Positions 16,358-58,377 of a stretch of 64,000 nucleotides of DNA are shown piece by piece; the stretch's first letter is position 1, and every line of letters starts with the position of its first letter. Source of the DNA: Pyrinomonadaceae bacterium (GTDB taxonomy: Bacteria > Acidobacteriota > Blastocatellia > Pyrinomonadales > Pyrinomonadaceae); contig JBBJMG010000015.1 in the NCBI GenBank assembly GCA_037720205.1, forward strand, positions 9,853-73,852, written 5' to 3'. Made by a program: the position numbers and the translations under genes. The notes beneath the pieces were generated by a model, which was given only the letters and a program-made list of their open reading frames with translations, did not search any database and was not told where the DNA came from.

Positions 16358-16439
16358 AACGGCTATATAAGGATATAAAAAAAAGCCCGCAGCCAAACGC
16401 GCGGACAAAATGCTTCCTACCTCGCTACCGTCAAACCGC

Positions 16440-17444
16440 CTAAGGGCGATTGGTCGCTGCTGGCGGTGGCGTCGCCGCCGGGCGCGGCGTCTGTCGCGGT
16501 GCAGCTGCGGGCGTTGACCGCGGAGTCGGTTTTGGGGCCGTCGTCGGACGAACTGTCGGGGTAGAGGAGGTTCGGACCGGCGTTGCAGCCGCGCTAGGAG
16601 TTACTTCTCCCGTTGCGGTAGGACCACTAGAGCTAACCGCCGCTGGCGGAATCTCAGTTATAATCGATCCCTCACTCCAGATTCTGGCCAAGTTGTTTCT
16701 ATTGATTTCAAACTCAATTGCGTTTCGCCGACCGGCGGTCGGTGAGATCGGCAAACTGATGGCCCTGCCGTTAATAGTCATCTCGACAGCCTTCGCCAGC
16801 GACTTCGAATAGCTAAATTTCAACGTGTCCTTTGCGGAAAACTCCGCCGCGGTACCACGGACCACATTTCGGCCGACCGATTTACCATCTGCCGTAGCGA
16901 GGAGCGACACATCCGCCGACACCGCCCGAAATTCGACGGTGATTGTGGACATATCAGGAGCCTGGGGCTCCACGGGAGATGGCGATTCAACACCCGGCAT
17001 CTCCATCGCAGGGCGCCCGCTGTTCGAGTTGCTCGCGAGTTCCGCCGGTTCGCGGAGATATCTTACAAGAAACAGGATGCCTGCAGAGAAGATCGCGAGT
17101 ATAACGACCGCGAGAATAATCGTAGGCACCATCGACGACGATGATCGGTCGTCCGTCAGAACCTCGGGCCGATAAGTCCTCGGACCGTCCTCTTCCGACC
17201 CCTCGCCATCCGAAATCAGCTGAGTGTACTCTGCGATTGCCTCTTGCTCATTCAAGCCCACCAACTTGGCGAATGTTTTGACGAAACCCTTGTTGAAGAT
17301 GCCGCCGGGGAGTATCTTGTAGTCGTCGTTCTCAATCGACTGCAGATAAATTGACGAAATGCGCGTCTGCTCGGCGACCTCGCTGATCGTGAAGCCCTTC
17401 TCTTCACGGGCAAGCCGCAATTTTTCGCCTAAGGTAGAAGACAT
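16440..17444 (-). CDS. RodZ-like HTH/transmembrane protein
   Basis: N-terminal XRE-type HTH ([30 protein letters not shown]), single TM, Pro/Thr/Ala-rich C-terminus. Architecture of cytoskeleton protein RodZ. Confidence 0.65.
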
Positions 17445-17579
17445 TTGCCGCGGATCGAACGTGCTTTAGGAAACCTGAGTAACACCAACTTTGTCCCCAA
17501 ATATATCGTTCATTTACGGGCGTTGTCAATTGATTCTAAAGAATTTGCCGCTTGCACAGGCTTTCCGTGGATGATAGCT

Positions 17580-17608
17580 TTGAGCATTGTCGCCCGTGCA
17601 CTTATACT
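17580..17608 (+). promoter_or_regulatory. Candidate sigma70-like promoter of the BMC operon
   Basis: TTGAGC, 17-nt spacer, TATACT, 36 nt upstream of the BMC-H ATG. GAGGA RBS at 17632..17636. Acidobacterial promoter rules are poorly defined. Confidence 0.3.
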
Positions 17609-17643
17609 GAGTGGGAATCAACCTAAATAGTGAGGATTAATCA

Positions 17644-18039
17644 ATGAGTTTAGAGGCTCTCGGAATGGTGGAAACCAAGGGATTTGTGGGCGCGGTCGAG
17701 GCTGCGGACGCAATGGTGAAGGCCGCAAACGTTAAGCTGATCGGAAAAGAGTATATTGGGGCCGGGTACGTTACCGTATTCGTTCGCGGAGACGTCGGAG
17801 CCGTGAAAGCCGCAACAGATGCTGGCGCCGCGGCCGCTCGCAGGGTCGGCGAACTGATAAGCGTCCATGTCATCCCGCGTCCGCACGGCGAGGTGGAGCG
17901 CGTGTTGCCCCGGGGTGGCGCGGTCGGCCTGAGTCCTGACGAGAAGGCTCTGGAGGGTGGGGGCCGCCAGCTCGGAGCGGGAGCTGCGGATACGTCTATC
18001 GACGTTACACCCACGAGCCGAACCCGGAACAAAGCCTAG
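17644..18039 (+). CDS. BMC-H (Pfam00936-type) microcompartment shell protein with ~40-aa C-terminal extension
   Basis: [56 protein letters not shown]...VHVIPRPH is canonical PduA/EutM/CcmK-like. Confidence 0.9.
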
Positions 18040-18142
18040 GTTTCCACGGTGGATATGCAACGCGCGCCCGATTTTTAGCCGTTAGCGAAGTTGTTTTAGC
18101 CCAATGAGATGACTCTGTAGAGCGCATTGCCTAGTTGAAAAT

Positions 18143-19882
18143 ATGGGTGGCGACAAGGACCTGATCGGGCAGGAGGAAGCCCGCAACGCGGTTGAGGCCG
18201 CGTCGCTCGCATTTAAGGCTGTCTCCATCATGGGCCAGGCTCGGATCGATGCGATCTGTGAGGCTATGTCCGCTATAGCTCTTGCCAACGCGGAAAGTCT
18301 CGGTCGGATGGCGTGTGAGGAAACCGGTTTTGGGCGAGCCGAGGATAAACGCGAAAAGAACCGCTTCGCCGCCGTGGATGTCTGGAATTATTTCCGAGAT
18401 CTGAAGACGGTGGGTGTTGTCCGCGAAAGCAAGAGCGTCGTGGAAATCGCCAGTCCGCGGGGCGTAGTCGCCGCGATCATCCCCTCGACAAATCCTACCT
18501 CCACAGCTATCTACAAGATCATAATTGCGATCAAGTCTCGGAATACGATCGTTCTATCTCCGCATCCCTCGGCCGCAAGATGTATAGCGGAGACCGTCCG
18601 GATCATGCGTCAAGAGGGTGAGAAAGCGGGCCTTCCGGCAGACTCAATCATCTGCCTAACTACACCCACGATAGACGGCACCGAGACACTGATGAAGCAT
18701 CGCAAGACTGCCGTCATCCTCGCTACGGGCGGTATAGGGTTGGTACGGGCGGCGTATTCGTCGGGAAAGCCGGCCTTCGGTGTCGGGCCGGGAAATGTGC
18801 CGGTTTTTATCGAACGTACCGCGAATATCGAAAAAGCCGTGGCGGATATTTTGACGAGCACCTGTTTTGACAACGGGACGATCTGCGCCTCAGAGCAGTC
18901 CGTCGTGGTGGATCGTACGGTCGAATCACAGGTTCGAGATCAGTTCACGCTACAGGGCGGCCACTTCTTGGACGAGGCCGAGTCGGCCGCGGTCGGCAAG
19001 ATTCTGTTGACGCCGCAACGTACTTTGAATGCCGCCATCGTAGGGAAATCCGCAGCCTTCATTGCGAATCTTGCGGGCGTGCAAGTCCCCGACGGCACAC
19101 GATGCTTGCTCGCGGATTGTGCCGGCGTGGGGCGCGATTTTCCCTGGTCGATTGAAAAGCTCTCGCCTACCCTCGCGTTTTTTGTAGCTGACGGCATCGC
19201 AGCCGCGGCGGCCAGGTGTCAGGAAATTTTGCGATTTGGCGGCATGGGGCACACTGCGGGCATGCATACACAGGATCGAGGCGCGGCAATCGAGTATGGC
19301 CAGGCAATGCCGGTCGCCCGTGTAATCATTAATTCACCCACGACACACGGAGCCATTGGTTTCTCGACCGATCTCACGCCGTCAATGACTCTGGGTTGTG
19401 GATCGTGGGGCGGTAACGTAACCTCTGACAACATCTCGCCGATGCATCTGATGGATATCAAACGTGTCGCCTTTGAGACGAAACCGGTCAATGCCCCAGT
19501 CGCCAAGCCAAACGCGGAGATCCCATTGGGTCAAGGGAATAGGCCAAAACCGAATCGTGACGAAATCGCAGCGATCGTCGATAGTTTTCTTAGTAAAAAA
19601 CTGGCTGGAGCCCACCCGCCCGCGCCGGCGATAGTCAAACCGGACGTTCCGGCCGAACCGCTGCTCCAGCCGTCGGCGGCCGTCACAACCGTTGTCCACC
19701 CCATCACTCCGGAGAATTCCGCCCAAAAGCCAGTCCCAATCGCAACGGTCGACTTTGTGAGCGAGGACGACGTACGCCAAGCTATCGAAAAAGGCGAGAA
19801 AATTTACATCTCCAAGAAGACGATCCTTACGCCGTCCGCTCGTGATCTGGGCGACGAGAAATCCGTATTTGCCGTGATTTGA
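18143..19882 (+). CDS. CoA-acylating aldehyde dehydrogenase (EutE/PduP-like) with ~130-aa C-terminal extension
   Basis: [15 protein letters not shown] catalytic-Cys motif and overall EutE/PduP-like sequence. Pro-rich linkers, an amphipathic helix and a terminal module follow the catalytic domain. Confidence 0.85.
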
Positions 19883-19886
19883 AAGA

Positions 19887-20246
19887 ATGCCCGAGGCGAT
19901 TGCACAACAACTGGCGTGCGCAGCGTGCGCGGCCGAGGTCCGGGCGGGCACGGTCTTCTGCTATAACTGCGGTGCAAGCCTTATCGGGAGTAGGCCCGAC
20001 GGACCGCACGAGTCCGTCTCTGAACCCGAATTGGCAATTCCTTTGTCCAAGGTCGAACGCGACTCGACCGGCGGACGAAGGACGAAGGCGGCTACGGAAC
20101 GAAAGATATCGCGGGGAACTCCCCGCATGGCGAAAGAATTTAAATGGGAGCCGGTCGAAGATTCGTCCTGGTCCACAATTTTAATTTCTGTCGTGATTTT
20201 TGCGATTTCCGCTACCGTTGTGATGCTCGTGGTCATCTGGCGATAG
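19887..20246 (+). CDS. Zinc-ribbon protein with C-terminal transmembrane anchor (unknown function)
   Basis: CAAC-x10-CYNC zinc ribbon at the N-terminus and a hydrophobic C-terminal helix (WSTILISVVIFAISATVVMLVVIW). Starts 4 nt after the AldDH stop. Confidence 0.6.
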   Translation: MPEAIAQQLACAACAAEVRAGTVFCYNCGASLIGSRPDGPHESVSEPELAIPLSKVERDSTGGRRTKAATERKISRGTPRMAKEFKWEPVEDSSWSTILISVVIFAISATVVMLVVIWR

Positions 20247-20308
20247 AGAGGGAAGAGTTGTAGACCTAATTCTTTGCACCGGGCGTGAAAACGCGCTAAT
20301 TTCTAGTT

Positions 20309-20629
20309 ATGAATGCACTCGGTATGGTGGAATGTTTTGGCCTTGTCGCAATGATCGAGGCCGCCGATGCGATGGTTAAATCGGCAAACGTTCAATTGGT
20401 CGGCTACGAACGCATCGATGCGGGGCTAGTCACAGCTATCGTCCGAGGCGAGGTTGGGGCCGTGAAAGCCGCCGTGGATGCAGGCGCCGCGGCCGGCCGC
20501 CGCGTCGGTACGGTTGTCGGCACGCACGTCATTCCCCGCCCGCACGATGAAGTCGACGATGCGATTGAGGTGCTTAGGACGGGTAAAACCACTCGCAAGA
20601 AGATCTCCGGCAGCGTTCCGGAAAAATAG
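20309..20629 (+). CDS. BMC-H microcompartment shell protein (second paralogue) with basic C-terminal tail
   Basis: [56 protein letters not shown]...HVIPRPH. Ends [14 protein letters not shown]. Confidence 0.9.
20585..20623 (+). repeat. Copy A of the 39-nt segment encoding [13 protein letters not shown] (3' end of the second BMC-H gene)
   Basis: Hand alignment with 21176..21214: 34 of 39 nt identical. All 5 differences are synonymous (AAG/AAA, TCC/TCA, AGC/TCC, GTT/GTC). Confidence 0.9.
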
Positions 20630-20638
20630 GAGAGATTT

Positions 20639-21220
20639 ATGCGCAAGCTCAGTGTGCTGCTTTTTGTGATCGGCTCTGCGTCGATGCTCGTCGGCCAGGT
20701 TTCCTCGACCGATTTGGATGCGTCGAGCAGGGAGCTGAAGAAGCGGCTTCTCGGTGACGGTAAAAACATTTTTGCAGTAAAAATTACGGGCTGCCGGGTT
20801 TCGATCAAATCAAATCTCACGAGTTCGACCCAGGACCTGCAACGGGGCGATACGTCGAGCGTGGGACGGGTTATTCCGCCGGATGGCATGTCCGGATTTT
20901 TCTCGGCAGGACCGGATCGCCCTGCAAAGCCGACGATGTACAGCCGTTACGAGATCAATTTCTCCAAACTTGATGCGGGTAAGGTAAGAACGACGCCCGC
21001 CCGCAAGGGAACGGCCCGGCTTGCCATTGTCGATGATCCGAGCGGAGTCATCACAGCAATTACTTCAAACGAAATGCAGGTAAAGTTTTATCCTACGGAG
21101 TATCCGATCATCGTGAACGCGAAAAACGCGGACCGAGTAACGGCTGCGATCCGAAGTTTTGCCAATGCTTGCCATAAAACCACTCGCAAAAAGATCTCAG
21201 GCTCCGTCCCGGAAAACTAA
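20639..21220 (+). CDS. Hypothetical protein with signal-peptide-like N-terminus, last gene of the BMC operon
   Basis: AGGAGA RBS, 9-nt gap after the shell gene. N-terminus MRKLSVLLFVIGSASMLVGQ. No family recognised. Ends [14 protein letters not shown]. Confidence 0.6.
   Translation: MRKLSVLLFVIGSASMLVGQVSSTDLDASSRELKKRLLGDGKNIFAVKITGCRVSIKSNLTSSTQDLQRGDTSSVGRVIPPDGMSGFFSAGPDRPAKPTMYSRYEINFSKLDAGKVRTTPARKGTARLAIVDDPSGVITAITSNEMQVKFYPTEYPIIVNAKNADRVTAAIRSFANACHKTTRKKISGSVPEN
21176..21214 (+). repeat. Copy B of the 39-nt segment encoding [13 protein letters not shown] (3' end of the hypothetical gene)
   Basis: See copy A. The peptide is identical, the DNA diverges only at synonymous positions. 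Confidence 0.9.
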
Positions 21221-21258
21221 TCTCGACGTGCGAAACTCGTAAAGGCGTGCAAAACGAG

Positions 21259-21290
21259 AAAGCCGGCAGTCCGAGGAGGACGCCGGCTTT
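21259..21290. terminator. Hairpin between the convergent BMC operon and VWA genes
   Basis: 9-bp stem (aaagccggc / gccggcttt), 14-nt loop. T-rich tract on the minus strand, weaker on the plus strand. Confidence 0.4.
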
Positions 21291-21306
21291 GCTAATTTGT
21301 GAATGA

Positions 21307-22389
21307 TTACGGCTTACGCGGCGTCGGAACAGGCGATGGCTTCTGAGGTGTGGGAGCCTTTCCTTCGGCCGTTCTCCCTGCCCGCGCGACTGCGATCCGC
21401 TTTTCCTTGTTAGGCCCGTCATCGACCTGGACTTTAATCGTCCGGTAACTTCCGTCAGTTCGGTCATTCGACGGTACATAACCGATGGAGTATTGCGTTC
21501 TCAACTCGCTTGAAATTTCCCGAGCCAAGTTGGGAAGCTCGGCGCCACTCTTTGGAAAGTAGGCCTTCCCGCCCGAATCGGCGGCGATCTTCTCTAAAAA
21601 CGCTTTTGCTTTGGCCTGCGGACTCTTGCTGATAAAACCGCCTTCCTTGCTTAGATCGTCCACGAATCCAATAACGTAAATCTGGACTTCCGACTCGCTC
21701 AGCAGCTCAGATAGCTGTTTCTCGTTGTAGTAGCTATTACGGTCCTCACCATCGCTAACCAAAATGAGGGCGCGACGCTTTCCCGATTCAGATTTCTTGC
21801 CTCGCTCGTAGTCGTCAACGTTTTCGACGGCAAGGTAAAGAGCGTCGATTACAGCAGTCTGGCCGCCCTCGATATACAAATTGTCGAGAGCGTCAATCAA
21901 ATCCGTCTTGTTGTTCGTGAACGGCTGCTCGATCTCGATCTTGTCACGTCCGACAAAACGGATTATCAACGTTTCATCCTCAGCTTTATTCAAGTTCACC
22001 AGCACCTTACCGGCCTCGACGACCTTATCGAGTTGCTGTCGCATCGAACCGGAATTATCAATCACAAGGCCATAATTCGTCGGGACTTCGGATTTGTCAA
22101 AGAAATCAATCTGCTGGACTACACCATCCTCATAAATCTTAAACTCGCGCTGCTGGATGTTATTTATCGGACGGCCATTACGATCTAAAACGCGGACGTT
22201 CAAGTTGACCAACTCGGCGTCTACCTTGATTACCTCATCATCCACTATCGGCGTGGGAGCCACCGTGGGCGTCGGCCGCACCAGAGGTGGCGAGGGCGAC
22301 GCGGACTGTGCTACTAGAAGCGGAGTTGCTGTGGCAATCAATACCGCCGTCATCAGAATTGCAAAAATTCTATTCATGTGTGTGGCCAT
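21307..22389 (-). CDS. Secreted von Willebrand factor A (VWA) domain protein
   Basis: Signal peptide, Pro-rich linker, MIDAS motif IDNSGSM, VWA fold signature (LILVSDGEDRNS). Resembles the acidobacterial VWFA-related family (from memory). Confidence 0.8.
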   Translation of the reverse strand: MATHMNRIFAILMTAVLIATATPLLVAQSASPSPPLVRPTPTVAPTPIVDDEVIKVDAELVNLNVRVLDRNGRPINNIQQREFKIYEDGVVQQIDFFDKSEVPTNYGLVIDNSGSMRQQLDKVVEAGKVLVNLNKAEDETLIIRFVGRDKIEIEQPFTNNKTDLIDALDNLYIEGGQTAVIDALYLAVENVDDYERGKKSESGKRRALILVSDGEDRNSYYNEKQLSELLSESEVQIYVIGFVDDLSKEGGFISKSPQAKAKAFLEKIAADSGGKAYFPKSGAELPNLAREISSELRTQYSIGYVPSNDRTDGSYRTIKVQVDDGPNKEKRIAVARAGRTAEGKAPTPQKPSPVPTPRKP

Positions 22390-22397
22390 GGCGTGTG

Positions 22398-23435
22398 TCA
22401 GCGAAAAAGTGGATTCGGCGTCGCGTAATAGCCCTCACGAGCTCGGACGGTTAGACGCGGTAACCCGCGAGGAGGTTTTATCTTAGTTTTTACCTTTCGC
22501 CATTTACCGTCAATCTTAAAATCCTTGGGCGTATAGCCAATTGAATATTGATGTCGGAGCTCCAGGGCGATCCGCTCAAAAATCTCATCCATCTCAATAT
22601 CCGTCTGCGGATAGAATGATTTGCCGCCCGAGACCGAGCTAAGTTCGTCGAGGAAGGCCTGGCCCTGCATACCGTTGGCACTTGCCGAGTCGCCGCGGTC
22701 CATAATGCCTACCGAGTAGGTTACGACATCCGACTCCTTCATAATGCGGCGAACTTCGCCGAAATTATATCGTGAAGCATTATCTTGCCCGTCACTGATC
22801 ACGAGCATGGCCCGCTTTTGATGGGTACCGCGCGTGACTCGCTCGACTCCCAGGTAGACTGCGTCATAAAGGGCCGTATTATTTTTCGGCTGAACCAACG
22901 TAAGCTTCCTCAAAATCGCCTCGCCGTCGCGCGTCCGATCCATAAGCAATTGAGCTCGGTTGTTGAAGGCAATCAGAAAGTACTCATCCGAGGGATGACT
23001 CGTGTTGATAAACCGTTCAAGAGCCTTCTTAGCCTTTCTAATTTTCTCTCCGTTCATTGAACCAGAGACATCGAATAGTATTCCTACCGAAACCGGTGCG
23101 TCGGCGTCGCTAAAATACGATATCTCCTGCTCGACCCCGTTATCAAAAACTGTGAATGCATTCTTATTCAGCCCGGACACATATCGGCCGTACGGGTCCG
23201 TGACCGTGAGCGTTAGCGTGACAAGATCAGTCTTTATCCGCAACGGCCCTTCGTCGTCTGGCGACGGGACCGGTGTCGGGGTGGCCTCCTGTGCCGCGGC
23301 CGCGACGACGGCCATGAATACGAACAACGATGCTACCGCGAAACGATTCAGCATAAGTAAGAAACCGAAACGAGTCGCTGACAAAGAAACCATTATTAAC
23401 CCCTTATATCCACTTTTCTGCTTCCCAAGGCACAA
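22398..23435 (-). CDS. Secreted VWA domain protein (tandem paralogue)
   Basis: MIDAS FDVSGSM, LVISDGQDNAS. Same architecture as its neighbour. The true start may be an internal Met (MVSLSATRF...). Confidence 0.8.
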   Translation of the reverse strand: MCLGKQKSGYKGLIMVSLSATRFGFLLMLNRFAVASLFVFMAVVAAAAQEATPTPVPSPDDEGPLRIKTDLVTLTLTVTDPYGRYVSGLNKNAFTVFDNGVEQEISYFSDADAPVSVGILFDVSGSMNGEKIRKAKKALERFINTSHPSDEYFLIAFNNRAQLLMDRTRDGEAILRKLTLVQPKNNTALYDAVYLGVERVTRGTHQKRAMLVISDGQDNASRYNFGEVRRIMKESDVVTYSVGIMDRGDSASANGMQGQAFLDELSSVSGGKSFYPQTDIEMDEIFERIALELRHQYSIGYTPKDFKIDGKWRKVKTKIKPPRGLPRLTVRAREGYYATPNPLFR

Positions 23436-35385: not shown

Positions 35386-36720
35386 CTATGATTGCCGATT
35401 CTGCAGAATCTTCTTAAACGACCCGGAGCGCAGCTCTTCCAGCGAAAGACTGGTCAGCTGCAGTGCTTCCTGCTCTGTCAAAGCTCCGCAATTGATGGCG
35501 CGCAGGAAATAATTGAGCAAACCCTGCCCGGTCGCCGCATCGTCGAAAACATCGCCGACGAGCGTTGCCTGCGCGGCCTTTGCAACAAAGTTGCTCAACC
35601 GCTCGGAAGCCGTGTCTAAACTCTCGAGAAAAAATGTGTAAACCGCCGCATAGCGGGTGGGCAGTTGGGCCGGATGCAGATCCCAGCCTTGATAGAAGGC
35701 ATTGGTCAGCGAATGCCGAATATGTTCGTAATGCAATTTCCAGGCACGATGAACAACGGTTCGGTTCTCAGTTTCTTGTTCTGCGGTGAGTTCTCCGCGA
35801 TGCGGAGCAACCGGCATAATGTTGGTGGCACCGTCCGACAGCCAAATGCCCGTACCGCCAAAGGATACCTGCATCATATGGCGGGCAAAATCGCACGCCG
35901 GGTGCAGCATATCCTGATAGGCGGCGGTGATACTGCAGCTCGCCGTGTAATCGTAAGTGCCGAAATGCGCCGCCAGACAACGCCCACGGGCGGCATCGAG
36001 CAATAGCGGAAGATTCGCTTCGCCGCGGTCGTTGATGAGCGACTGCGTGGTTTCGATCATCATCTCCATTTTGAGCGAATTTGCCGACAAATTCAGTTGC
36101 GGTTCAAGCAGATCAAAAATGTCAGCCAGCGTTGAAACCTGGGCGGGCGAAACGATCTTCGGCAGCGTCACGACAAAATTTTTCGGAATGCGTCCCTTCG
36201 TAGCCTCGACGAGTGTTGAAAGAAACAGATCAAGCGTGCGAATGCTGCGGGCGTGCAATTCTTCGGAAAGGGTTTTGATGCGGATACCAATAAACGGCGG
36301 CAAGGTGCCGACTTCAAGGCCTTTGGCAACTTCCTCGGCGGCGATAGCTGCGTGCCCGTCTTCTTCTTCGTCGGGACGCGTGCCGTAGCCGTCTTCAAAA
36401 TCAATACGGAAATCTTCGATTGCTTCCCGATTAAGTTTTTCCAAAACCCTTTCGTAAATTGTATCGGCCAGTGCGGGCGGCAGTTCGAGAGCTTCGGCAA
36501 AAGTCTTCGCGTCCGGCGCGTAAGTTTCTAAAGAACGCAGAGCCAGCGAGCCGAGCCGCATAGCAGTGTCCGATTTGAACAAATGGGCACCGCCATAAAC
36601 AGTATGCACCGGCTGCCGGCGGCCCGATTCGCCCGGATAACGCGCGGCAAAAGCGTCGTGCGCCGGTTTCAGCGATTGCGTGATCTTCTGCATTGATGCT
36701 TCGGAAAGTGTTGTTCTCAT
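35386..36720 (-). CDS. Uncharacterised CitE/HpcH (citrate-lyase beta / malyl-CoA lyase)-like TIM-barrel protein
   Basis: RIDFEDGYG and EMMIETTQS resemble the DLEDAV and IE(T/S) motifs of CitE/HpcH enzymes. ATG at 36720 has an AGGAAG RBS. Last gene of the uricolytic operon. Confidence 0.5.
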   Translation of the reverse strand: MRTTLSEASMQKITQSLKPAHDAFAARYPGESGRRQPVHTVYGGAHLFKSDTAMRLGSLALRSLETYAPDAKTFAEALELPPALADTIYERVLEKLNREAIEDFRIDFEDGYGTRPDEEEDGHAAIAAEEVAKGLEVGTLPPFIGIRIKTLSEELHARSIRTLDLFLSTLVEATKGRIPKNFVVTLPKIVSPAQVSTLADIFDLLEPQLNLSANSLKMEMMIETTQSLINDRGEANLPLLLDAARGRCLAAHFGTYDYTASCSITAAYQDMLHPACDFARHMMQVSFGGTGIWLSDGATNIMPVAPHRGELTAEQETENRTVVHRAWKLHYEHIRHSLTNAFYQGWDLHPAQLPTRYAAVYTFFLESLDTASERLSNFVAKAAQATLVGDVFDDAATGQGLLNYFLRAINCGALTEQEALQLTSLSLEELRSGSFKKILQNRQS

Positions 36721-36802
36721 AGGGTCTTCCTGCAGAAACACGCACGCAGTAAGTGTGTCATTTCGCCCTTACTTCGTGCGGGCTTCCGCACTCCTCGTAT
36801 TT

Positions 36803-37648
36803 TTACCGCCGTAATCGAGCTTCGATCAAGCCGTGCGGCTCGTCCGTCGGCAAGAATATCCGATTGTCGTTCTCCAGGCCGAAGCGCGAAAAGTCTATCG
36901 GCAAATAATGGATATTCGGGAGCGAAAACGATATTTCTACGATCTCGGGAAAGTTTTCCAAAACCGCTTTGCCCATTGCGTAGAGCGTGTGTTGGACCGA
37001 AAGACTGTCGTGTTCGGAGAAGGTTTCGATAATTGTTTTTCGCACGCGGTGCCAAACATTGCCGGCCGCTGCTTCGGGATCTTCATAGAGCCAGTTCGCT
37101 TTGACGGAAGTAGCAAAAATTCTGTCCGTTGTTTCCGGCAAAGTGGTGTATTGGTCTTTGATAAAACCGGCAAAACCCGATCTGGTCGTTTTCAAAACAA
37201 TTAAATCTACAACGCCCGATTCAATCGATGTGCCGTCGTGTGTTGCGTTGACTTTTGTCGTGCGTTGTTCGTTACTGCCTTTGATGAAAGAATGCGGATG
37301 AGGTTCGGAAGGTTTCTCCATTCGCGTCCAGCCGTGTTCGACAATTTCGATAATAACTCTCGTAACTTGCTGGTTATTTGCCAAAAAATGTTTCGCCAAC
37401 CGCGTCGCAAAACTTTCGATCTCTTCGATCTCCTGCGTCTGATGCGCCAGCACATAAACAGTATTTTTCATTGTATCGGTTGGCAAACACTGACTGTTGT
37501 CGCCGACCGTATGAATTTCCGTAAAATCGCCTTCAAGCGCGATACTCACGGTCACTTCCTGGATCTCCTGCTTGTCGCCGTGCCGGGCGACCTTCATTAA
37601 GCGAACACGCTTTTTTCCGTAATTGTCGTGAACTATAGTAATCGACAT
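36803..37648 (-). CDS. Cofactor-independent urate oxidase (uricase)
   Basis: NYGKKRVRLMKV...LEGDF...DNSQCLPTDTMKNTVYVLA is the uricase tunnelling-fold signature. 281 aa. Confidence 0.9.
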   Translation of the reverse strand: MSITIVHDNYGKKRVRLMKVARHGDKQEIQEVTVSIALEGDFTEIHTVGDNSQCLPTDTMKNTVYVLAHQTQEIEEIESFATRLAKHFLANNQQVTRVIIEIVEHGWTRMEKPSEPHPHSFIKGSNEQRTTKVNATHDGTSIESGVVDLIVLKTTRSGFAGFIKDQYTTLPETTDRIFATSVKANWLYEDPEAAAGNVWHRVRKTIIETFSEHDSLSVQHTLYAMGKAVLENFPEIVEISFSLPNIHYLPIDFSRFGLENDNRIFLPTDEPHGLIEARLRR

Positions 37649-37651
37649 AAT

Positions 37652-37993
37652 TTAGCTTCCGCGATAGGTTGAATAACCAAACGGGCTGAGCAACAACGGA
37701 ACATGATAATGCTGCCCTGTGTCGTGCACGGTAAACGCAACCGTGACCTGCGGATAGAATCCTTCGATCTGTTGTTCTGCAAAATAAATTCCCGTGTCAA
37801 ACGTCAGCCGATAATTTCCCGTTTGCAAAATTGCGTCAGGATCAAGCAAATCGCGCAATCGTCCGTCTTCATCCGTGACGCCTTTGCCGATAGTTTCCCA
37901 GTCCGTTTCCGTCTGCCGCTCCAATGTAACGGCAACGCCGCGCGCCGGAGAACCCGATGAAATATCTAAGATATGCGTAGTGATTGCGCTCAT
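37652..37993 (-). CDS. uraH: 5-hydroxyisourate hydrolase (transthyretin-like)
   Basis: THILD N-terminal motif and the diagnostic C-terminal YRGS tetrapeptide. 113 aa. Confidence 0.92.
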   Translation of the reverse strand: MSAITTHILDISSGSPARGVAVTLERQTETDWETIGKGVTDEDGRLRDLLDPDAILQTGNYRLTFDTGIYFAEQQIEGFYPQVTVAFTVHDTGQHYHVPLLLSPFGYSTYRGS

Positions 37994-38511
37994 TCAGATT
38001 CCCGATCTAACAATTTCTTCAACCTGATCTCCGTGATCCTTCTCTGTTCATCTGCCGCGATGAGAATTTCTGCGTCAATGGCATTGTCTAAACGATGACG
38101 GCAAATTTCGAGCATTTCTTCCGCGCTCTTGCCCGTCGCACAAACAATAAATATGAATCCGAACTTATCTTCAAATAAACGGTTAGCTTCAGCTAATGCG
38201 TTGCGAACCGGGTCGGCGGCGGTTTGTGTGCCGGATTGTTCCGCGTGCGACCACTCAGCCGATTGCGCCGTTGCTTGCGGAACGGCTTGGCGAGCCCCGA
38301 TTTTGGGATGAGCGGCAAATGCTTCGAGCCAATCCTCGGTTTCGAGATTATGCCAGATTTCCTCTGCTTGATTTAGTAACCCGGAAATATCATCAAAAGG
38401 TCGCGCCTGAGCCATCTTTTGCGCCCAACGGCGCGAACCACAACAACTTAGAAATACAGATACCGCCTTTACTTGCGAAGCGCGATTTAATTGTTCTAAT
38501 CCTTCGCTCAT
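37990..38511 (-). CDS. uraD: 2-oxo-4-hydroxy-4-carboxy-5-ureidoimidazoline (OHCU) decarboxylase
   Basis: AHPKIG motif, about 170 aa. 4-nt overlaps with both neighbours. Confidence 0.85.
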   Translation of the reverse strand: MSEGLEQLNRASQVKAVSVFLSCCGSRRWAQKMAQARPFDDISGLLNQAEEIWHNLETEDWLEAFAAHPKIGARQAVPQATAQSAEWSHAEQSGTQTAADPVRNALAEANRLFEDKFGFIFIVCATGKSAEEMLEICRHRLDNAIDAEILIAADEQRRITEIRLKKLLDRESE

Positions 38512-39512
38512 TCCGCAATTTTCCCGTAAAGCCGCAGACGGCTCACACCGCCATCAGGAAAAATATTGAATCGAACATGTGTAACTATGCCGCTGTCACC
38601 GATCTCATCGGCAAAACTATGCAAAGTATGAGCTTGAAGTTTCATGTTCGGCAGTAGTTCCTGCCAGGCAATGTTGTCTAGATTCGCATCATCGGCTGCG
38701 CTGCAAACCTCGATCCAACAACTCTCCGGATAATTTCCCTTGAACCATAAAGTATCGACTTCGACGCGCTTGATCGTACCCGGCGCTCCCAGTTTGATGA
38801 CACACCAATCGTAACCAGGGTCGCGCCGCCGTTTGGTTTCCCATCCGTAGCTCATATCCGAGGCGCGTCCGGGCATTATCAGGTTATGGCGATGCCCGAA
38901 AAACATATCGCTCGCCGTCAAAACCGTTCCGCCGTGTTCCGCGGCAGCCAGATCGATCTCACTCCCACGCCGTCGCAGAGACGCCCAATCCGGCAGGACT
39001 TCACCAAAAACTCGCATCCGCGCAACGCCGCCGTCAGGATAAATTTTCAGACGTAAATGCGTTACGCGCGGCGGGGAGTTTATCGTAAACCGATTTGGCG
39101 AATCGCCCTGCAATTCCGATTGCGGCAAAATTTCATTCCATTCCGCGCTCATCAGCTGCTCAAGCCGGGGCTGAGAATCAATCGTGCAAACTTCGATCGA
39201 GCAATGCGAAGGAAAATTGCCGCGAAAAAAACTCGTGTCGACGACAACGCCGCGAATGATGCCCGCCAGGCCCAAACGTATGATGCACCAATCAAAATTC
39301 TCTTCCAGACGCGGCGAACGTCGACGGCGCGTTTCCCAACCGTCCATCCATTTGCCCAGATCAGTGTATTTGCCCTCGATAAAGATCGCCGCCGCGGGTT
39401 TCAGCAAATTCTCTTTCGGCGCGAAAAATTCGTCATTCGCGTATAAAACCGCGCCGCCCAGCTTCTCGGAAGCCAGATCAATTAGTTCGGTAAAATCCAC
39501 CATAAGGTCCAA
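38508..39512 (-). CDS. alc: Allantoicase
   Basis: Two allantoicase repeats (GKWMDGWETRRRR and YGWETKRRR). Confidence 0.88.
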   Translation of the reverse strand: MDLMVDFTELIDLASEKLGGAVLYANDEFFAPKENLLKPAAAIFIEGKYTDLGKWMDGWETRRRRSPRLEENFDWCIIRLGLAGIIRGVVVDTSFFRGNFPSHCSIEVCTIDSQPRLEQLMSAEWNEILPQSELQGDSPNRFTINSPPRVTHLRLKIYPDGGVARMRVFGEVLPDWASLRRRGSEIDLAAAEHGGTVLTASDMFFGHRHNLIMPGRASDMSYGWETKRRRDPGYDWCVIKLGAPGTIKRVEVDTLWFKGNYPESCWIEVCSAADDANLDNIAWQELLPNMKLQAHTLHSFADEIGDSGIVTHVRFNIFPDGGVSRLRLYGKIAE

Positions 39513-39525
39513 GTTTTGACTATCA

Positions 39526-40884
39526 CTATTTTAACAGCAATCTGCCATTTGCCTTGGCGGCAAACGATCCTTGCTCATAAACTTTTGCGCCGCGTAGGTA
39601 GGTAGCTTCCACGACGCCGCGCAAATTCATTCCCGCATACGGTGTGACCTTATTCTTAAAATGAATGATCTCCGGCACAACTTTGAACTCTTTTTCGGGA
39701 CTCCAGACAACAATGTCCGCATCGTAGCCGATTTCAAGACGACCTTTTCGTTTGTCCAATTCAGCTAATCTGGCGGGCGCCACCGACATCCATTGCGTCA
39801 GGTGGCGCAAACCAAAACCCCGTTTTTCAATTTGCGTCCACATCACTGGCAAACTGAACTGCAAAGCCGCGATCCCGCCCCAAGCCTCAAGAAAATTCCC
39901 CTCTTCCATCAATTTCAGATCCGGAGTGCAGGGCGAATGGTCGGAGACAACCATATCGATCACACCGTCGGCGAGAGCCGCCCAAAGCAGTTCACGATTC
40001 TCGCGCTCGCGCACGGGTGGGCAACATTTAAAATGAGTTGCGCCCTCGGGAATTTCTTCCGCCGCAAAAGTCAGATAATGCGGACAGGTTTCAACCGTCA
40101 GCGGCAAACCTTCGTCACGAGCTGCTTTTAGCATCGGCAGAACATCCGAAGATGAATGATGCACAATGTGAACCCGCGCCCCGCTGGCACGGCAGAGGCG
40201 GATCATCAATTCAACTGCCTTATTTTCTGATTCTCGCGGACGCGATCGTAGAAATGTTTGATAATCCTGCGCGCTGGCACCGCTTAATTCCGCGGCGGCA
40301 TTTTCGATCGGTGCGGGCAATTCGGCATGGACCAGCAAAACAGAATTGTGTTTGGCCAGTTGCGGCATTGCTTCAAGCAAGTTTGTTTCGGTAACGTGGG
40401 GAAATTCATCAACTCCGGAATGCACTAAAAAGCATTTGAAGCCGCGTACGCCTGCGTTTAAAAGCGGTTTTAATTCATTCGTGTTGCCCGGAATGACGCC
40501 GCCCCAGAACGCCACGTCGATCCAGCATTGCCCTTTTGCCGCGGCGAGTTTTTGAGCAAACCCATCCGTCGTTGTAGTCGGCGGTATACTGTTGAGCGGC
40601 ATATCAACAAGCGTCGTAACACCGCCCGCCGCGCCGGCGCGCGTCGCCGTCGCAAAGCCTTCCCATTGTGTGCGTCCCGGTTCGTTGACGTGAACGTGCG
40701 AATCAATCAATCCCGCCATTATTACTGCATCGCCTGCATCGACCAACGGAACCGCCGGTTCTAATACTTGATCCCATTCGCCCAGTGCCACAATAACGCC
40801 GCTGCGAACATGCACAGAAGCCGGACCGATAATTTCCGGCATAACCACTCTCCGACTGCGAATAATTAGATCCAGCCTTTTCAT
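39526..40884 (-). CDS. allB: Allantoinase (cyclic amidohydrolase)
   Basis: DSHVHVNEPGRTQWEGFATATRAGAAGGVTTLVDMP metal-binding N-terminal signature. ATG at 40884 preferred to the upstream alternative start. Confidence 0.88.
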   Translation of the reverse strand: MKRLDLIIRSRRVVMPEIIGPASVHVRSGVIVALGEWDQVLEPAVPLVDAGDAVIMAGLIDSHVHVNEPGRTQWEGFATATRAGAAGGVTTLVDMPLNSIPPTTTTDGFAQKLAAAKGQCWIDVAFWGGVIPGNTNELKPLLNAGVRGFKCFLVHSGVDEFPHVTETNLLEAMPQLAKHNSVLLVHAELPAPIENAAAELSGASAQDYQTFLRSRPRESENKAVELMIRLCRASGARVHIVHHSSSDVLPMLKAARDEGLPLTVETCPHYLTFAAEEIPEGATHFKCCPPVRERENRELLWAALADGVIDMVVSDHSPCTPDLKLMEEGNFLEAWGGIAALQFSLPVMWTQIEKRGFGLRHLTQWMSVAPARLAELDKRKGRLEIGYDADIVVWSPEKEFKVVPEIIHFKNKVTPYAGMNLRGVVEATYLRGAKVYEQGSFAAKANGRLLLK

Positions 40885-41164
40885 ATTCAATCTATATAGA
40901 CGTGAACATATTGGGCAACCTGTCCCTTTCACCACCAGTATTAATTAAATGAGAAAGTCAATATTGACGAGAGATACTGTTCGATTCTGTCGGGGCGGAT
41001 TCATCACTGCAGTACATCACAATGTTCGCTCGACGGCAACCGGCTTCTGACCGTCAAAGCGATCATCGCAGCCCCTCCGGGCCTTATTATCTTTTTCGAT
41101 GTTGTGGGCGGTGGCTAGGCTAAGTCTAAAGTCTTAAGTCCTAAGTTCAGGATTAAAATGGCCG

Positions 41165-57391: not shown

Positions 57392-57862
57392 ATGATCAAA
57401 AGAATCTTAAAAATCGTGGCTGTGATTCTGGCCGTTGGATTCGTTGCCATGCAGTTTGTACGTATCGATCGCACAAATCCTCCCATCGTATCCAGCGAAA
57501 CCTTGGAATCAGCCGTAACCGTCCCGGCCGATGTATCTCTGGTGTTGTCGCGCTCGTGCAACGACTGCCACTCGCACAAAACGACGTTCCCATGGTATGC
57601 CCAGATCCAGCCAGCGGCGTTTTTTCTTGACGACCATATTCTCGAAGGGCGGCATGAACTGAATTTTAGTAAGTTTAATACTTACGAGCCAAAGAAAAAG
57701 GCGCGGAAACTCGAAGAAATCTGCGAAGAAGTCACAAGCGCCGCAATGCCATTGCCTTCATACTTGTGGATCCACGGCGACGCTATCTTAACGCAGAGTG
57801 AATCAAAGCTGTTGTGCGATTGGACCAACGATGAGCGTGCGAAAATGGGAACTGTGGAGTGA
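57392..57862 (+). CDS. Haem-binding-domain protein (single CxxCH)
   Basis: N-terminal TM anchor and CNDCH motif. Resembles the Haem_bd family (from memory). Confidence 0.6.
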   Translation: MIKRILKIVAVILAVGFVAMQFVRIDRTNPPIVSSETLESAVTVPADVSLVLSRSCNDCHSHKTTFPWYAQIQPAAFFLDDHILEGRHELNFSKFNTYEPKKKARKLEEICEEVTSAAMPLPSYLWIHGDAILTQSESKLLCDWTNDERAKMGTVE

Positions 57863-57894
57863 GCGAAGGTTTAAGATACAAGCGGAAACTTAGA

Positions 57895-58377
57895 ATGTAT
57901 TGCCCGTCCTGTGCAAAAGAGAACGAGCTGGACCAGAAATTTTGTCGCGCCTGTGGGATGAATCTCGAGCAGACAGGTTTGTCATTGCGTGAGCAATTTC
58001 CAGACGGGAATCAGACCACATTCGACCGCGAACAAAAATTGCTGGAGAAATTCGGTAACTTGGCAATGACGGGTTTCGCAGTCGTTTTGGCAGTCGCCAT
58101 CTTGTCGCTTATTTACGTAATCTTCGGGAAGATGATCTGGAGTGGCACCCAACCTTATTACGGACTGTTGCTGGTCGCGTTTATCACCTTTGCCGGCCTC
58201 GCCCTCGCCTACGTCGCCTGGAACGAATCATTAAAGGAGAAACGTCAGATGGCGGGACGCCAATCCGACAATGACGCGAGGGCGCGAGAAAAGTCTCTGT
58301 TGGGAGATAAACCAATTGAACCAGTCCCAAGCGTTACGGAGCGTACGACCTCAAAACTGCGAGCACCGAGGAATTAA
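57895..58377 (+). CDS. Zinc-ribbon membrane protein
   Basis: MYCPSCAKEN...CRACG zinc ribbon followed by two hydrophobic helices. The alternative GTG start at 57859 overlaps the upstream stop. Confidence 0.55.
   Translation: MYCPSCAKENELDQKFCRACGMNLEQTGLSLREQFPDGNQTTFDREQKLLEKFGNLAMTGFAVVLAVAILSLIYVIFGKMIWSGTQPYYGLLLVAFITFAGLALAYVAWNESLKEKRQMAGRQSDNDARAREKSLLGDKPIEPVPSVTERTTSKLRAPRN

Follow-up and report, generated by a model that had tools for sequence, protein, structure and literature searches.

A probable satellite locus of the ACI-type bacterial microcompartment in a Pyrinomonadaceae genome

A five-gene cluster probably corresponds to the ACI satellite locus

We analysed a 64-kb stretch of DNA (contig JBBJMG010000015.1, positions 9,853 to 73,852; hereafter the window) from a Pyrinomonadaceae metagenome-assembled genome (MAG) that harbours a cluster of five genes related to bacterial microcompartments (BMCs). 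The cluster encodes two hexameric shell proteins (BMC-H1 and BMC-H2), a coenzyme A (CoA)-acylating aldehyde dehydrogenase (AldDH), a small protein with a zinc ribbon and a transmembrane (TM) helix (ZnTM) and a further open reading frame (ORF5). With a probability of roughly 0.85, we assign it to the AldDH satellite locus of the ACI-type metabolosome. A preliminary description of the window had listed five closely spaced genes on a single strand and had set two readings side by side, a satellite of a main locus elsewhere and a minimal BMC sufficient in itself. All five ORFs were found on the plus strand at the coordinates below, with intergenic gaps of 103, 4, 62 and 9 nt in order, and the assignments of the two BMC-H genes and of the AldDH gene were borne out by Pfam and NCBIfam.

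17644..18039, plus strand: BMC-H1, hexameric shell protein of 131 aa (PF00936, E = 4e-29)
18143..19882, plus strand: CoA-acylating AldDH of 579 aa with a C-terminal extension (PF00171; TIGR02518)
19556..19609, plus strand: amphipathic helix of AldDH resembling an encapsulation peptide (residues 472-489), conserved in 80 orthologues
19748..19879, plus strand: C-terminal domain of AldDH (residues 536-579, 44 aa), highly conserved among 80 orthologues
19887..20246, plus strand: ZnTM (ORF3), 119 aa, with an N-terminal zinc ribbon, a variable acidic linker, a basic motif and a C-terminal TM helix
20309..20629, plus strand: BMC-H2, second hexamer paralogue of 106 aa (PF00936, E = 7.8e-30)
20639..21220, plus strand: ORF5, 193 aa, resembling a signal peptide at its N-terminus and ending in a copy of the BMC-H2 tail

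A published catalogue of BMC loci places the ACI type solely in Acidobacteria, for the most part in subdivisions 4 and 6 (Sutter et al. 2021, Nat Commun 12:3809, PMC8217296). There, the ACI AldDh is consistently located on a satellite locus, sometimes accompanied by a BMC-H of class H_fuchsia or H_royalpurple; it carries an encapsulation peptide (EP) close to its C-terminus followed by a domain of unknown function of ~50 aa, and it clusters phylogenetically only with the AldDhs of MIC3 (metabolosome with incomplete core 3) (PMC8217296). The ACI main locus encodes a pfam00596 aldolase with a C-terminal EP, a BMC-H, a triplet of BMC-P pentamers and a hydroxyacid dehydrogenase, and one of its unknowns is a short protein with an N-terminal EP and conserved cysteines (PMC8217296).

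The cluster agrees with this description in host, layout and domain structure. Its relatives, and a database entry that matches BMC-H2 exactly (NCBI MEJ7624752.1, 'MAG: BMC domain-containing protein [Pyrinomonadaceae bacterium]'), come from Pyrinomonadaceae or Blastocatellia MAGs, and thus from the same phylum (Acidobacteriota) and class. Blastocatellia we take to be Acidobacteria subdivision 4. The AldDH gene adjoins a BMC-H gene and stands apart from any BMC-P triplet and aldolase, both in the 64-kb window and in related genomes, where no BMC-P or Aldolase_II was found within ±10 kb of about 80 satellite loci. The extension of AldDH holds a putative EP-like helix (residues 472-489) and a 44-aa domain (residues 536-579). 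The Acidobacteria-restricted BMC class that the preliminary description had mentioned can be identified with the ACI type of the catalogue. The catalogue already contains both this locus class and its division into two parts, and the locus is a further member rather than a new minimal BMC. Because ACI is split into main and satellite loci as catalogued, incompleteness of the satellite is expected. What appeared to be an incomplete acidobacterial metabolosome operon would then be the expected satellite of a split system, and its incompleteness, which had been put forward as an open question, is no discovery.

AldDH carries a conserved targeting-like helix and a small C-terminal domain

The catalytic part of AldDH is of the EutE/AdhE-N acetylating type. 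Residues 4-449 matched the acetylating acetaldehyde dehydrogenase model TIGR02518 (E = 1.9e-171) with 571 bits, below its equivalog cut-off of 620 bits. The closest solved structure is that of an acetylating acetaldehyde dehydrogenase (5J78, E = 3e-141), with which the catalytic cysteine context GTICASEQ is shared.

Beyond the catalytic domain, the extension consists in order of a variable linker, the helix at residues 472-489, a proline-rich linker, a VKTIxHE motif and the domain at residues 536-579. The helix follows the consensus R(E/D)xIAAiVDxFLsxKlae in 80/80 orthologues and is flanked on both sides by variable, proline-rich linkers; its position agrees with that of the catalogued EP, and it may act as one. 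The supplementary EP models of the BMC catalogue include none named for ACI.

A search with the C-terminal domain returned 516 matches among 1.84 billion cluster representatives. We considered whether this domain might be a tag borne by other cargo, and rejected the idea, as all 24 of the matches inspected were C-terminal fragments of AldDHs. An AlphaFold2 (AF2) model of the domain has a beta-alpha-beta-alpha-beta fold at a pLDDT of 87.9, and searches of the PDB by sequence and by fold gave nothing significant.

The satellite core is conserved and syntenic across Pyrinomonadaceae

Scanning one genome per GTDB species with AldDH gave at least 492 relatives, and the best 80 were examined. These are 68-77% identical to the window protein and all derive from Pyrinomonadaceae, Blastocatellia or Acidobacteriota MAGs. 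Complete Pyrinomonadaceae chromosomes with the satellite also exist (OZ244558.1, OZ244585.1, OZ244151.1 and CAVTYF010000001.1). Across these species-level genomes, identities are ~80-96% for the BMC-H1 core, 78-90% for BMC-H2 and 68-77% for AldDH. The gene order is conserved: the minus strand carries guaB and a rodZ-like gene, the plus strand BMC-H1-AldDH-ZnTM-BMC-H2, and downstream of the satellite lie two acidobacterial VWA genes (TIGR03436), always convergent. BMC-H1, ZnTM and BMC-H2 occur together with AldDH in 68 of the 81 Pyrinomonadaceae loci; about half of the remaining 13 are cut by contig ends, and the rest have no detectable BMC-H2 though the sequence runs on downstream. An extra VWA-domain ORF of 213-231 aa lies between AldDH and ZnTM in 16/81 loci (e.g. 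L055:11718-12407, L079:11738-12379).

The synteny comparison, which the preliminary description had proposed, also reached distant Acidobacteria. Here, for example in a Terriglobia MAG and two ENA contigs, the satellite is minimal: BMC-H precedes an AldDH that shares the C-terminal domain, and neither ZnTM nor BMC-H2 nor an adjacent BMC-P is present. ZnTM and BMC-H2 are family-specific additions to the satellite. On one distant ENA contig a RodZ-like gene also lies upstream of the BMC-H/AldDH pair (L085:6115-6905), with a GGDEF gene between, and the RodZ-like/BMC-H/AldDH neighbourhood may be an old synteny.

In most genomes the end of the VWA gene is reached ~80-100 nt past BMC-H2. This short spacer 3' of BMC-H2 is an insertion hot spot, and holds an IS200-like transposase in one relative (L016:12432-13004), a BrnT/BrnA pair (BrnT toxin plus a small ORF) in another (L026:3919-4393) and longer unannotated inserts in three others (L008, L034 and L037).

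Two BMC-H paralogues with different pore loops

Both BMC-H proteins of the window score best against EutM, and the BMC-H adjoining AldDH has standard PRPH motifs. Three BMC-H classes can be distinguished. The main-locus protein described below is 92-95 aa long and has an IGAG pore loop, found in all five aligned sequences. BMC-H1 is ~130 aa long and combines an IGAG loop (80/80 orthologues), a PRPH motif and a semi-conserved C-terminal extension of ~40 aa; in distant Acidobacteria, its counterpart is the BMC-H encoded just ahead of AldDH (L082, L085, L086). BMC-H2, of 106 aa, has a core that resembles the main-locus BMC-H, an IDAG loop in the window ([IV]DAG in 68/68 orthologues) and a basic C-terminal tail that is conserved in all orthologues. 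The aspartate in its pore loop suggests a hexamer with a different pore charge. A homologue search with BMC-H2 for main-locus paralogues returned only BMC-H2 orthologues among its best 120 matches.

A matching main locus exists in Pyrinomonadaceae

A homologue search with the BMC-P of Haliangium ochraceum (HO; verified against 5V74) returned only HO-type proteins among its best 120 matches. To find the main locus in relatives, metagenomes were scanned with a BMC-P alignment. Two contigs (L144 and L145, GC 0.55) were obtained, on which a Rex-like regulator is followed by a class II aldolase, a 95-aa BMC-H, three consecutive EutN_CcmL proteins and a protein of ~153 aa. The aldolase (PF00596, E = 1.8e-45) ends in an amphipathic helix, LTREELVELLSQAVDSNS, and the ~153-aa protein carries an EP-like segment, TELEQARVIAERIARRV, at its N-terminus and is cysteine-rich at its C-terminus. 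The best 120 homologues of the aldolase are 87-100% identical and ~272 aa long, and wherever a taxon is attached to them it is Pyrinomonadaceae, Blastocatellia or Acidobacteriota. The order Rex, Aldolase_II, BMC, three EutN_CcmL recurred in the gene tables of six further records (L167, L169, L179, L181, L183 and L186, comprising JBPCIQ, CAYLJO, JANNON, JAPPSA, JBGSWR and a 2.0-Mb ENA contig). Upstream of Rex, ruvB/ruvA are encoded in the opposite direction, and the longer records extend further to queA and brkB; downstream of the BMC-P triplet, most records carry an unknown protein of 144-160 aa, followed by LemA in convergent orientation. A small TonB_C ORF was seen between Rex and the aldolase in L169, L181 and L186.

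These loci share with the catalogued ACI main locus the PF00596 aldolase with a C-terminal EP, the BMC-H, the BMC-P triplet and the EP-bearing, cysteine-rich unknown, and they lend support to the suggestion of the preliminary description that the window genes are a satellite of a main locus elsewhere. The catalogue's BMC-P tree likewise lists two Blastocatellia MAGs as 'ACI (main)' (PMC8217296). The Pyrinomonadaceae loci also depart from the catalogue text: the main loci start with Rex and have no adjacent hydroxyacid dehydrogenase, the satellite adds a second flanking BMC-H, the ZnTM gene and sometimes a VWA gene, and ORF5 is an extra of the window organism.

Several observations weigh against the assignment. 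No hydroxyacid dehydrogenase (pfam00389/02826) was present within ±4-10 kb of the six Pyrinomonadaceae main loci; it may be encoded elsewhere or be missing in this family. The best NCBIfam match of the aldolase is 3-oxo-tetronate-4-phosphate decarboxylase (OtnC; 2.9e-42, 145 bits, below the cut-off of 250; P0505, L183), and FucA-type models rank after it, all of them well under curated cut-offs. Because OtnC rather than FucA is the best match, and is itself below its cut-off, the aldehyde-producing step is uncertain. None of the six main-locus records (0/6) was among 86 satellite-bearing assemblies. Some main/satellite pairs come from the same sequencing projects (prefixes JANN and JBGS; MBA26/27), none of them from one genome, and when assembly accessions, GenBank blocks of protein accessions and Logan run ids were compared, there was no overlap that would tie a main-locus record to a satellite-bearing assembly or to the source MAG. 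The presence of a main locus in that MAG is assumed, from the catalogue and from the wide occurrence of both loci in Pyrinomonadaceae.

Core metabolosome genes are absent from the window

The canonical metabolosome core comprises a signature enzyme, AldDH, PTAC, alcohol dehydrogenase, BMC-H, BMC-T and BMC-P. Within the window, AldDH and BMC-H are its only members, and PTAC, Fe-ADH and BMC-T were not found. A Pfam scan that took in ~50 further ORFs, essentially all those remaining, detected no EutN_CcmL (BMC-P), Aldolase_II, 2-Hacid_dh, PTAC or Fe-ADH. Also, tblastn of four BMC-P probes against the window gave nothing significant; the probes were HO BMC-P, E. coli EutN and Synechocystis CcmL, each checked against PDB chains, and PduN, confirmed by a 100% match. 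The preliminary description, which had recognised no BMC-P, BMC-T, phosphotransacylase, alcohol dehydrogenase or signature enzyme, was thereby confirmed for the window as a whole.

The lack of a vertex protein, a signature enzyme and a cofactor-recycling enzyme in the window is what a decaying, nonfunctional remnant of a once complete BMC locus might leave behind. We regard decay as exceedingly improbable, given that no core ORF is disrupted and all are conserved in 80 species-level genomes, that catalytic and shell motifs are retained, and that ACI systems are split in this way as a rule.

ZnTM and ORF5 are poor candidates for the missing functions

ZnTM matches Pfam zinc-ribbon families weakly, under their cut-offs, and has a CxxC...CxxC motif and a C-terminal TM helix. 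Its architecture (CxxCG..VR....FCYNCG, then AAxERRKARV..RK..E..WE, then the TM helix) is kept in 67 of the 68 loci that have AldDH and BMC-H2. The protein evolves fast, with 25-38% identity and lengths of 106-179 aa among relatives, and contains no enzyme-like domain. A tail-anchored topology is predicted, the TM helix having been assigned by eye. A second small zinc-ribbon membrane protein of different layout is encoded at 57859-58377 of the window (Zn_Ribbon_1, E = 3.8e-6), and such proteins seem to be common in the source genome.

ORF5 had no match in Pfam, NCBIfam or PHROGs, and a single-sequence AF2 model was uninformative (pLDDT 33). It occurs in only 3/82 loci, namely the window, L003 (31% identity, likewise with a signal peptide) and L005 (a truncated form of 67 aa). 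ORF5 was weighed as the carrier of a missing core function and ruled out, as it is absent from 79/82 loci; elsewhere its slot holds the IS200-like transposase or the BrnT/BrnA pair. Because so few loci carry it and other genes fill the slot elsewhere, ORF5 is a recent lineage-specific accessory insertion and not a core component.

The end of ORF5 is linked to that of BMC-H2 by a direct repeat of 45 nt (20584-20628 and 21175-21219, 87% identical), such that the last 14 residues of ORF5 repeat the BMC-H2 tail. Between the two copies, five codons have changed synonymously (AGC to TCC in one case), and the terminal residue and the stop codon are not the same; a lineage-specific E-to-K change is common to both. 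Among the loci compared, the duplication is unique to the window organism. This pattern suggests that both copies are constrained or, alternatively, that there was an import from an allele that had diverged.

A self-sufficient minimal BMC, in which the five genes suffice and ZnTM and ORF5 replace vertex, cofactor-recycling or signature functions, would accord with the tight, operon-like conservation of the four-gene core, and the absence of a family assignment for ZnTM and ORF5 leaves their functions open. We nevertheless judge it very unlikely, and the corresponding suggestion of the preliminary description was not upheld. ORF5 is rare, truncated in one of its three loci and has a signal-peptide-like N-terminus; ZnTM is a small, probably tail-anchored zinc-ribbon protein with a variable linker and nothing enzyme-like. 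BMC shells need pentamers to close, and without one closed shells are not expected. In addition, the same family has another locus that encodes a BMC-P triplet and an aldolase with an EP, and the satellites of distant Acidobacteria consist of BMC-H and AldDH only.

A further proposal, compatible with the ACI satellite assignment, is that the Pyrinomonadaceae satellite evolved a membrane-tethering or gating module made of the tail-anchored zinc-ribbon protein and BMC-H2, with its acidic pore and basic tag; we hold this to be unlikely. In a membrane-associated sub-assembly of this kind, shells or facets containing BMC-H2 would be held at the cytoplasmic membrane by ZnTM, with or without the VWA protein, via the conserved basic tail of BMC-H2, and the compartment would be coupled with a transporter or with positioning; we give this arrangement equally low credence. 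In the 68 complete loci, ZnTM and BMC-H2 both lie in the interval from AldDH to the downstream genes, both are missing from distant satellites, the BMC-H2 tail and [IV]DAG loop are invariant, a VWA-domain ORF stands beside ZnTM in 16 loci, and the ORF5 copy of the tail has diverged at five codons with a single terminal replacement. Because this diverged copy, its amino acids preserved, sits on an unrelated signal-peptide protein, the BMC-H2 tag could be a portable interaction peptide. Against the proposal, the claimed interaction has no direct evidence and the TM topology was predicted by eye; a signal peptide on ORF5 would place the tail outside the cytoplasm; small zinc-ribbon/TM proteins are common in Acidobacteria, as exemplified by the second one in the window; and the tail duplication is confined to one organism. 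If true, a BMC would be physically coupled to the cell membrane via a defined peptide tag.

A putative split pathway and its relation to known metabolosomes

Based on general metabolosome logic and on the precedent of PVM/GRM5, a working model for the ACI system can be outlined. The main-locus BMC-H and the BMC-P triplet would assemble into a shell together with BMC-H1 and BMC-H2, and the amphipathic helices would recruit the aldolase and AldDH into its lumen. The aldolase-family enzyme may free an aldehyde, most likely lactaldehyde or glycolaldehyde, from a phosphorylated sugar or sugar acid, and AldDH would convert this aldehyde to an acyl-CoA with reduction of NAD+ inside the shell. The Rex repressor encoded next to the main locus could tie expression to the NADH/NAD+ status of the cell. 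No enzyme that recycles CoA or NAD+ was seen in the satellite or the main locus of Pyrinomonadaceae, and the flanks of the main loci contained no PTAC, alcohol dehydrogenase or BMC-T.

The fucose/rhamnose metabolosomes PVM/GRM5 resemble this arrangement in placing a class II aldolase and a CoA-acylating AldDH inside a shell. Their chemistry runs from a ketose-1-phosphate to dihydroxyacetone phosphate and lactaldehyde, and from lactaldehyde to lactyl-CoA. However, they carry PTAC and alcohol dehydrogenase or other recycling enzymes in one locus, none of which was found in the Pyrinomonadaceae loci, and the Pyrinomonadaceae aldolase is no clear FucA or RhaD equivalog. MIC3, whose AldDh is the sole close neighbour of the ACI AldDh according to the catalogue and whose aldolase is similar, is, like ACI, functionally uncharacterised, and differs from ACI in locus type and taxa. 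EUT and PDU systems share the acetylating type of the AldDH catalytic domain, the affinity of the BMC-H proteins to EutM and the EutN/CcmL family of the main-locus BMC-P proteins. In contrast to these systems, the Pyrinomonadaceae loci have no ethanolamine ammonia-lyase, diol dehydratase, PTAC or alcohol dehydrogenase, the putative targeting helix of AldDH lies inside a C-terminal extension rather than at the N-terminus, and the genes are split over two loci.

ACI is among the most widespread BMC types of soil bacteria, and in the limited collection of literature searched we found no functional study of it. The parts list given here is compact and narrows the assays to be made, comprising Rex, the aldolase, BMC-H, three BMC-P and the EP/cysteine protein from the main locus, and BMC-H1, AldDH, ZnTM and BMC-H2 from the satellite. 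The closer match of the aldolase to the OtnC model than to FucA models and the missing recycling enzymes also narrow the search for the ACI substrate.

Signals and surroundings of the cluster

Other features at or near the cluster are the following.

16440-17444: RodZ-like HTH_25 gene, just upstream of the BMC-H/AldDH pair
17580..17608, plus strand: candidate sigma-70-like promoter TTGAGC-17-TATACT upstream of BMC-H1, 9/12 matches
21257..21292 (approx.), no strand assigned: hairpin of -26.7 kcal/mol (z = -3.9 vs shuffles) between the convergent ORF5 and VWA gene
21307-23435: two acidobacterial VWA genes (TIGR03436), convergent, downstream of the cluster

The ribosome-binding site predicted for ORF5, AGGAGA, is present 6 nt upstream of its ATG. 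A promoter had been proposed at 17580, and a site does exist there; promoter-like sites were not enriched relative to shuffled sequence (2 found, 2.0 expected), so this one is a candidate only. The hairpin, earlier placed at 21259..21290, was recovered with slightly wider limits. It has no canonical T-run of the kind demanded by a simple terminator scan, and is a probable bidirectional terminator. A scan of 16400-22400 with Rfam gave no riboswitch and no other RNA family.

The flanking genes are those named earlier: an IMPDH-like ORF (guaB) and the RodZ-like protein on one side, and the two VWA proteins, type II secretion system F and E proteins (gspEF) and 6-phosphogluconate dehydrogenase (gnd) on the other. 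Elsewhere in the window, Pfam identified SecDF, TonB/ExbB, RelA/SpoT, LpxC, AtuA, an ordinary ALDH and a urate-degradation cluster. The last of these is a compact minus-strand set of urate/allantoin degradation genes at 35386-40935, encoding DUF6986, uricase, HIU hydrolase, OHCU decarboxylase, allantoicase and an amidohydrolase.

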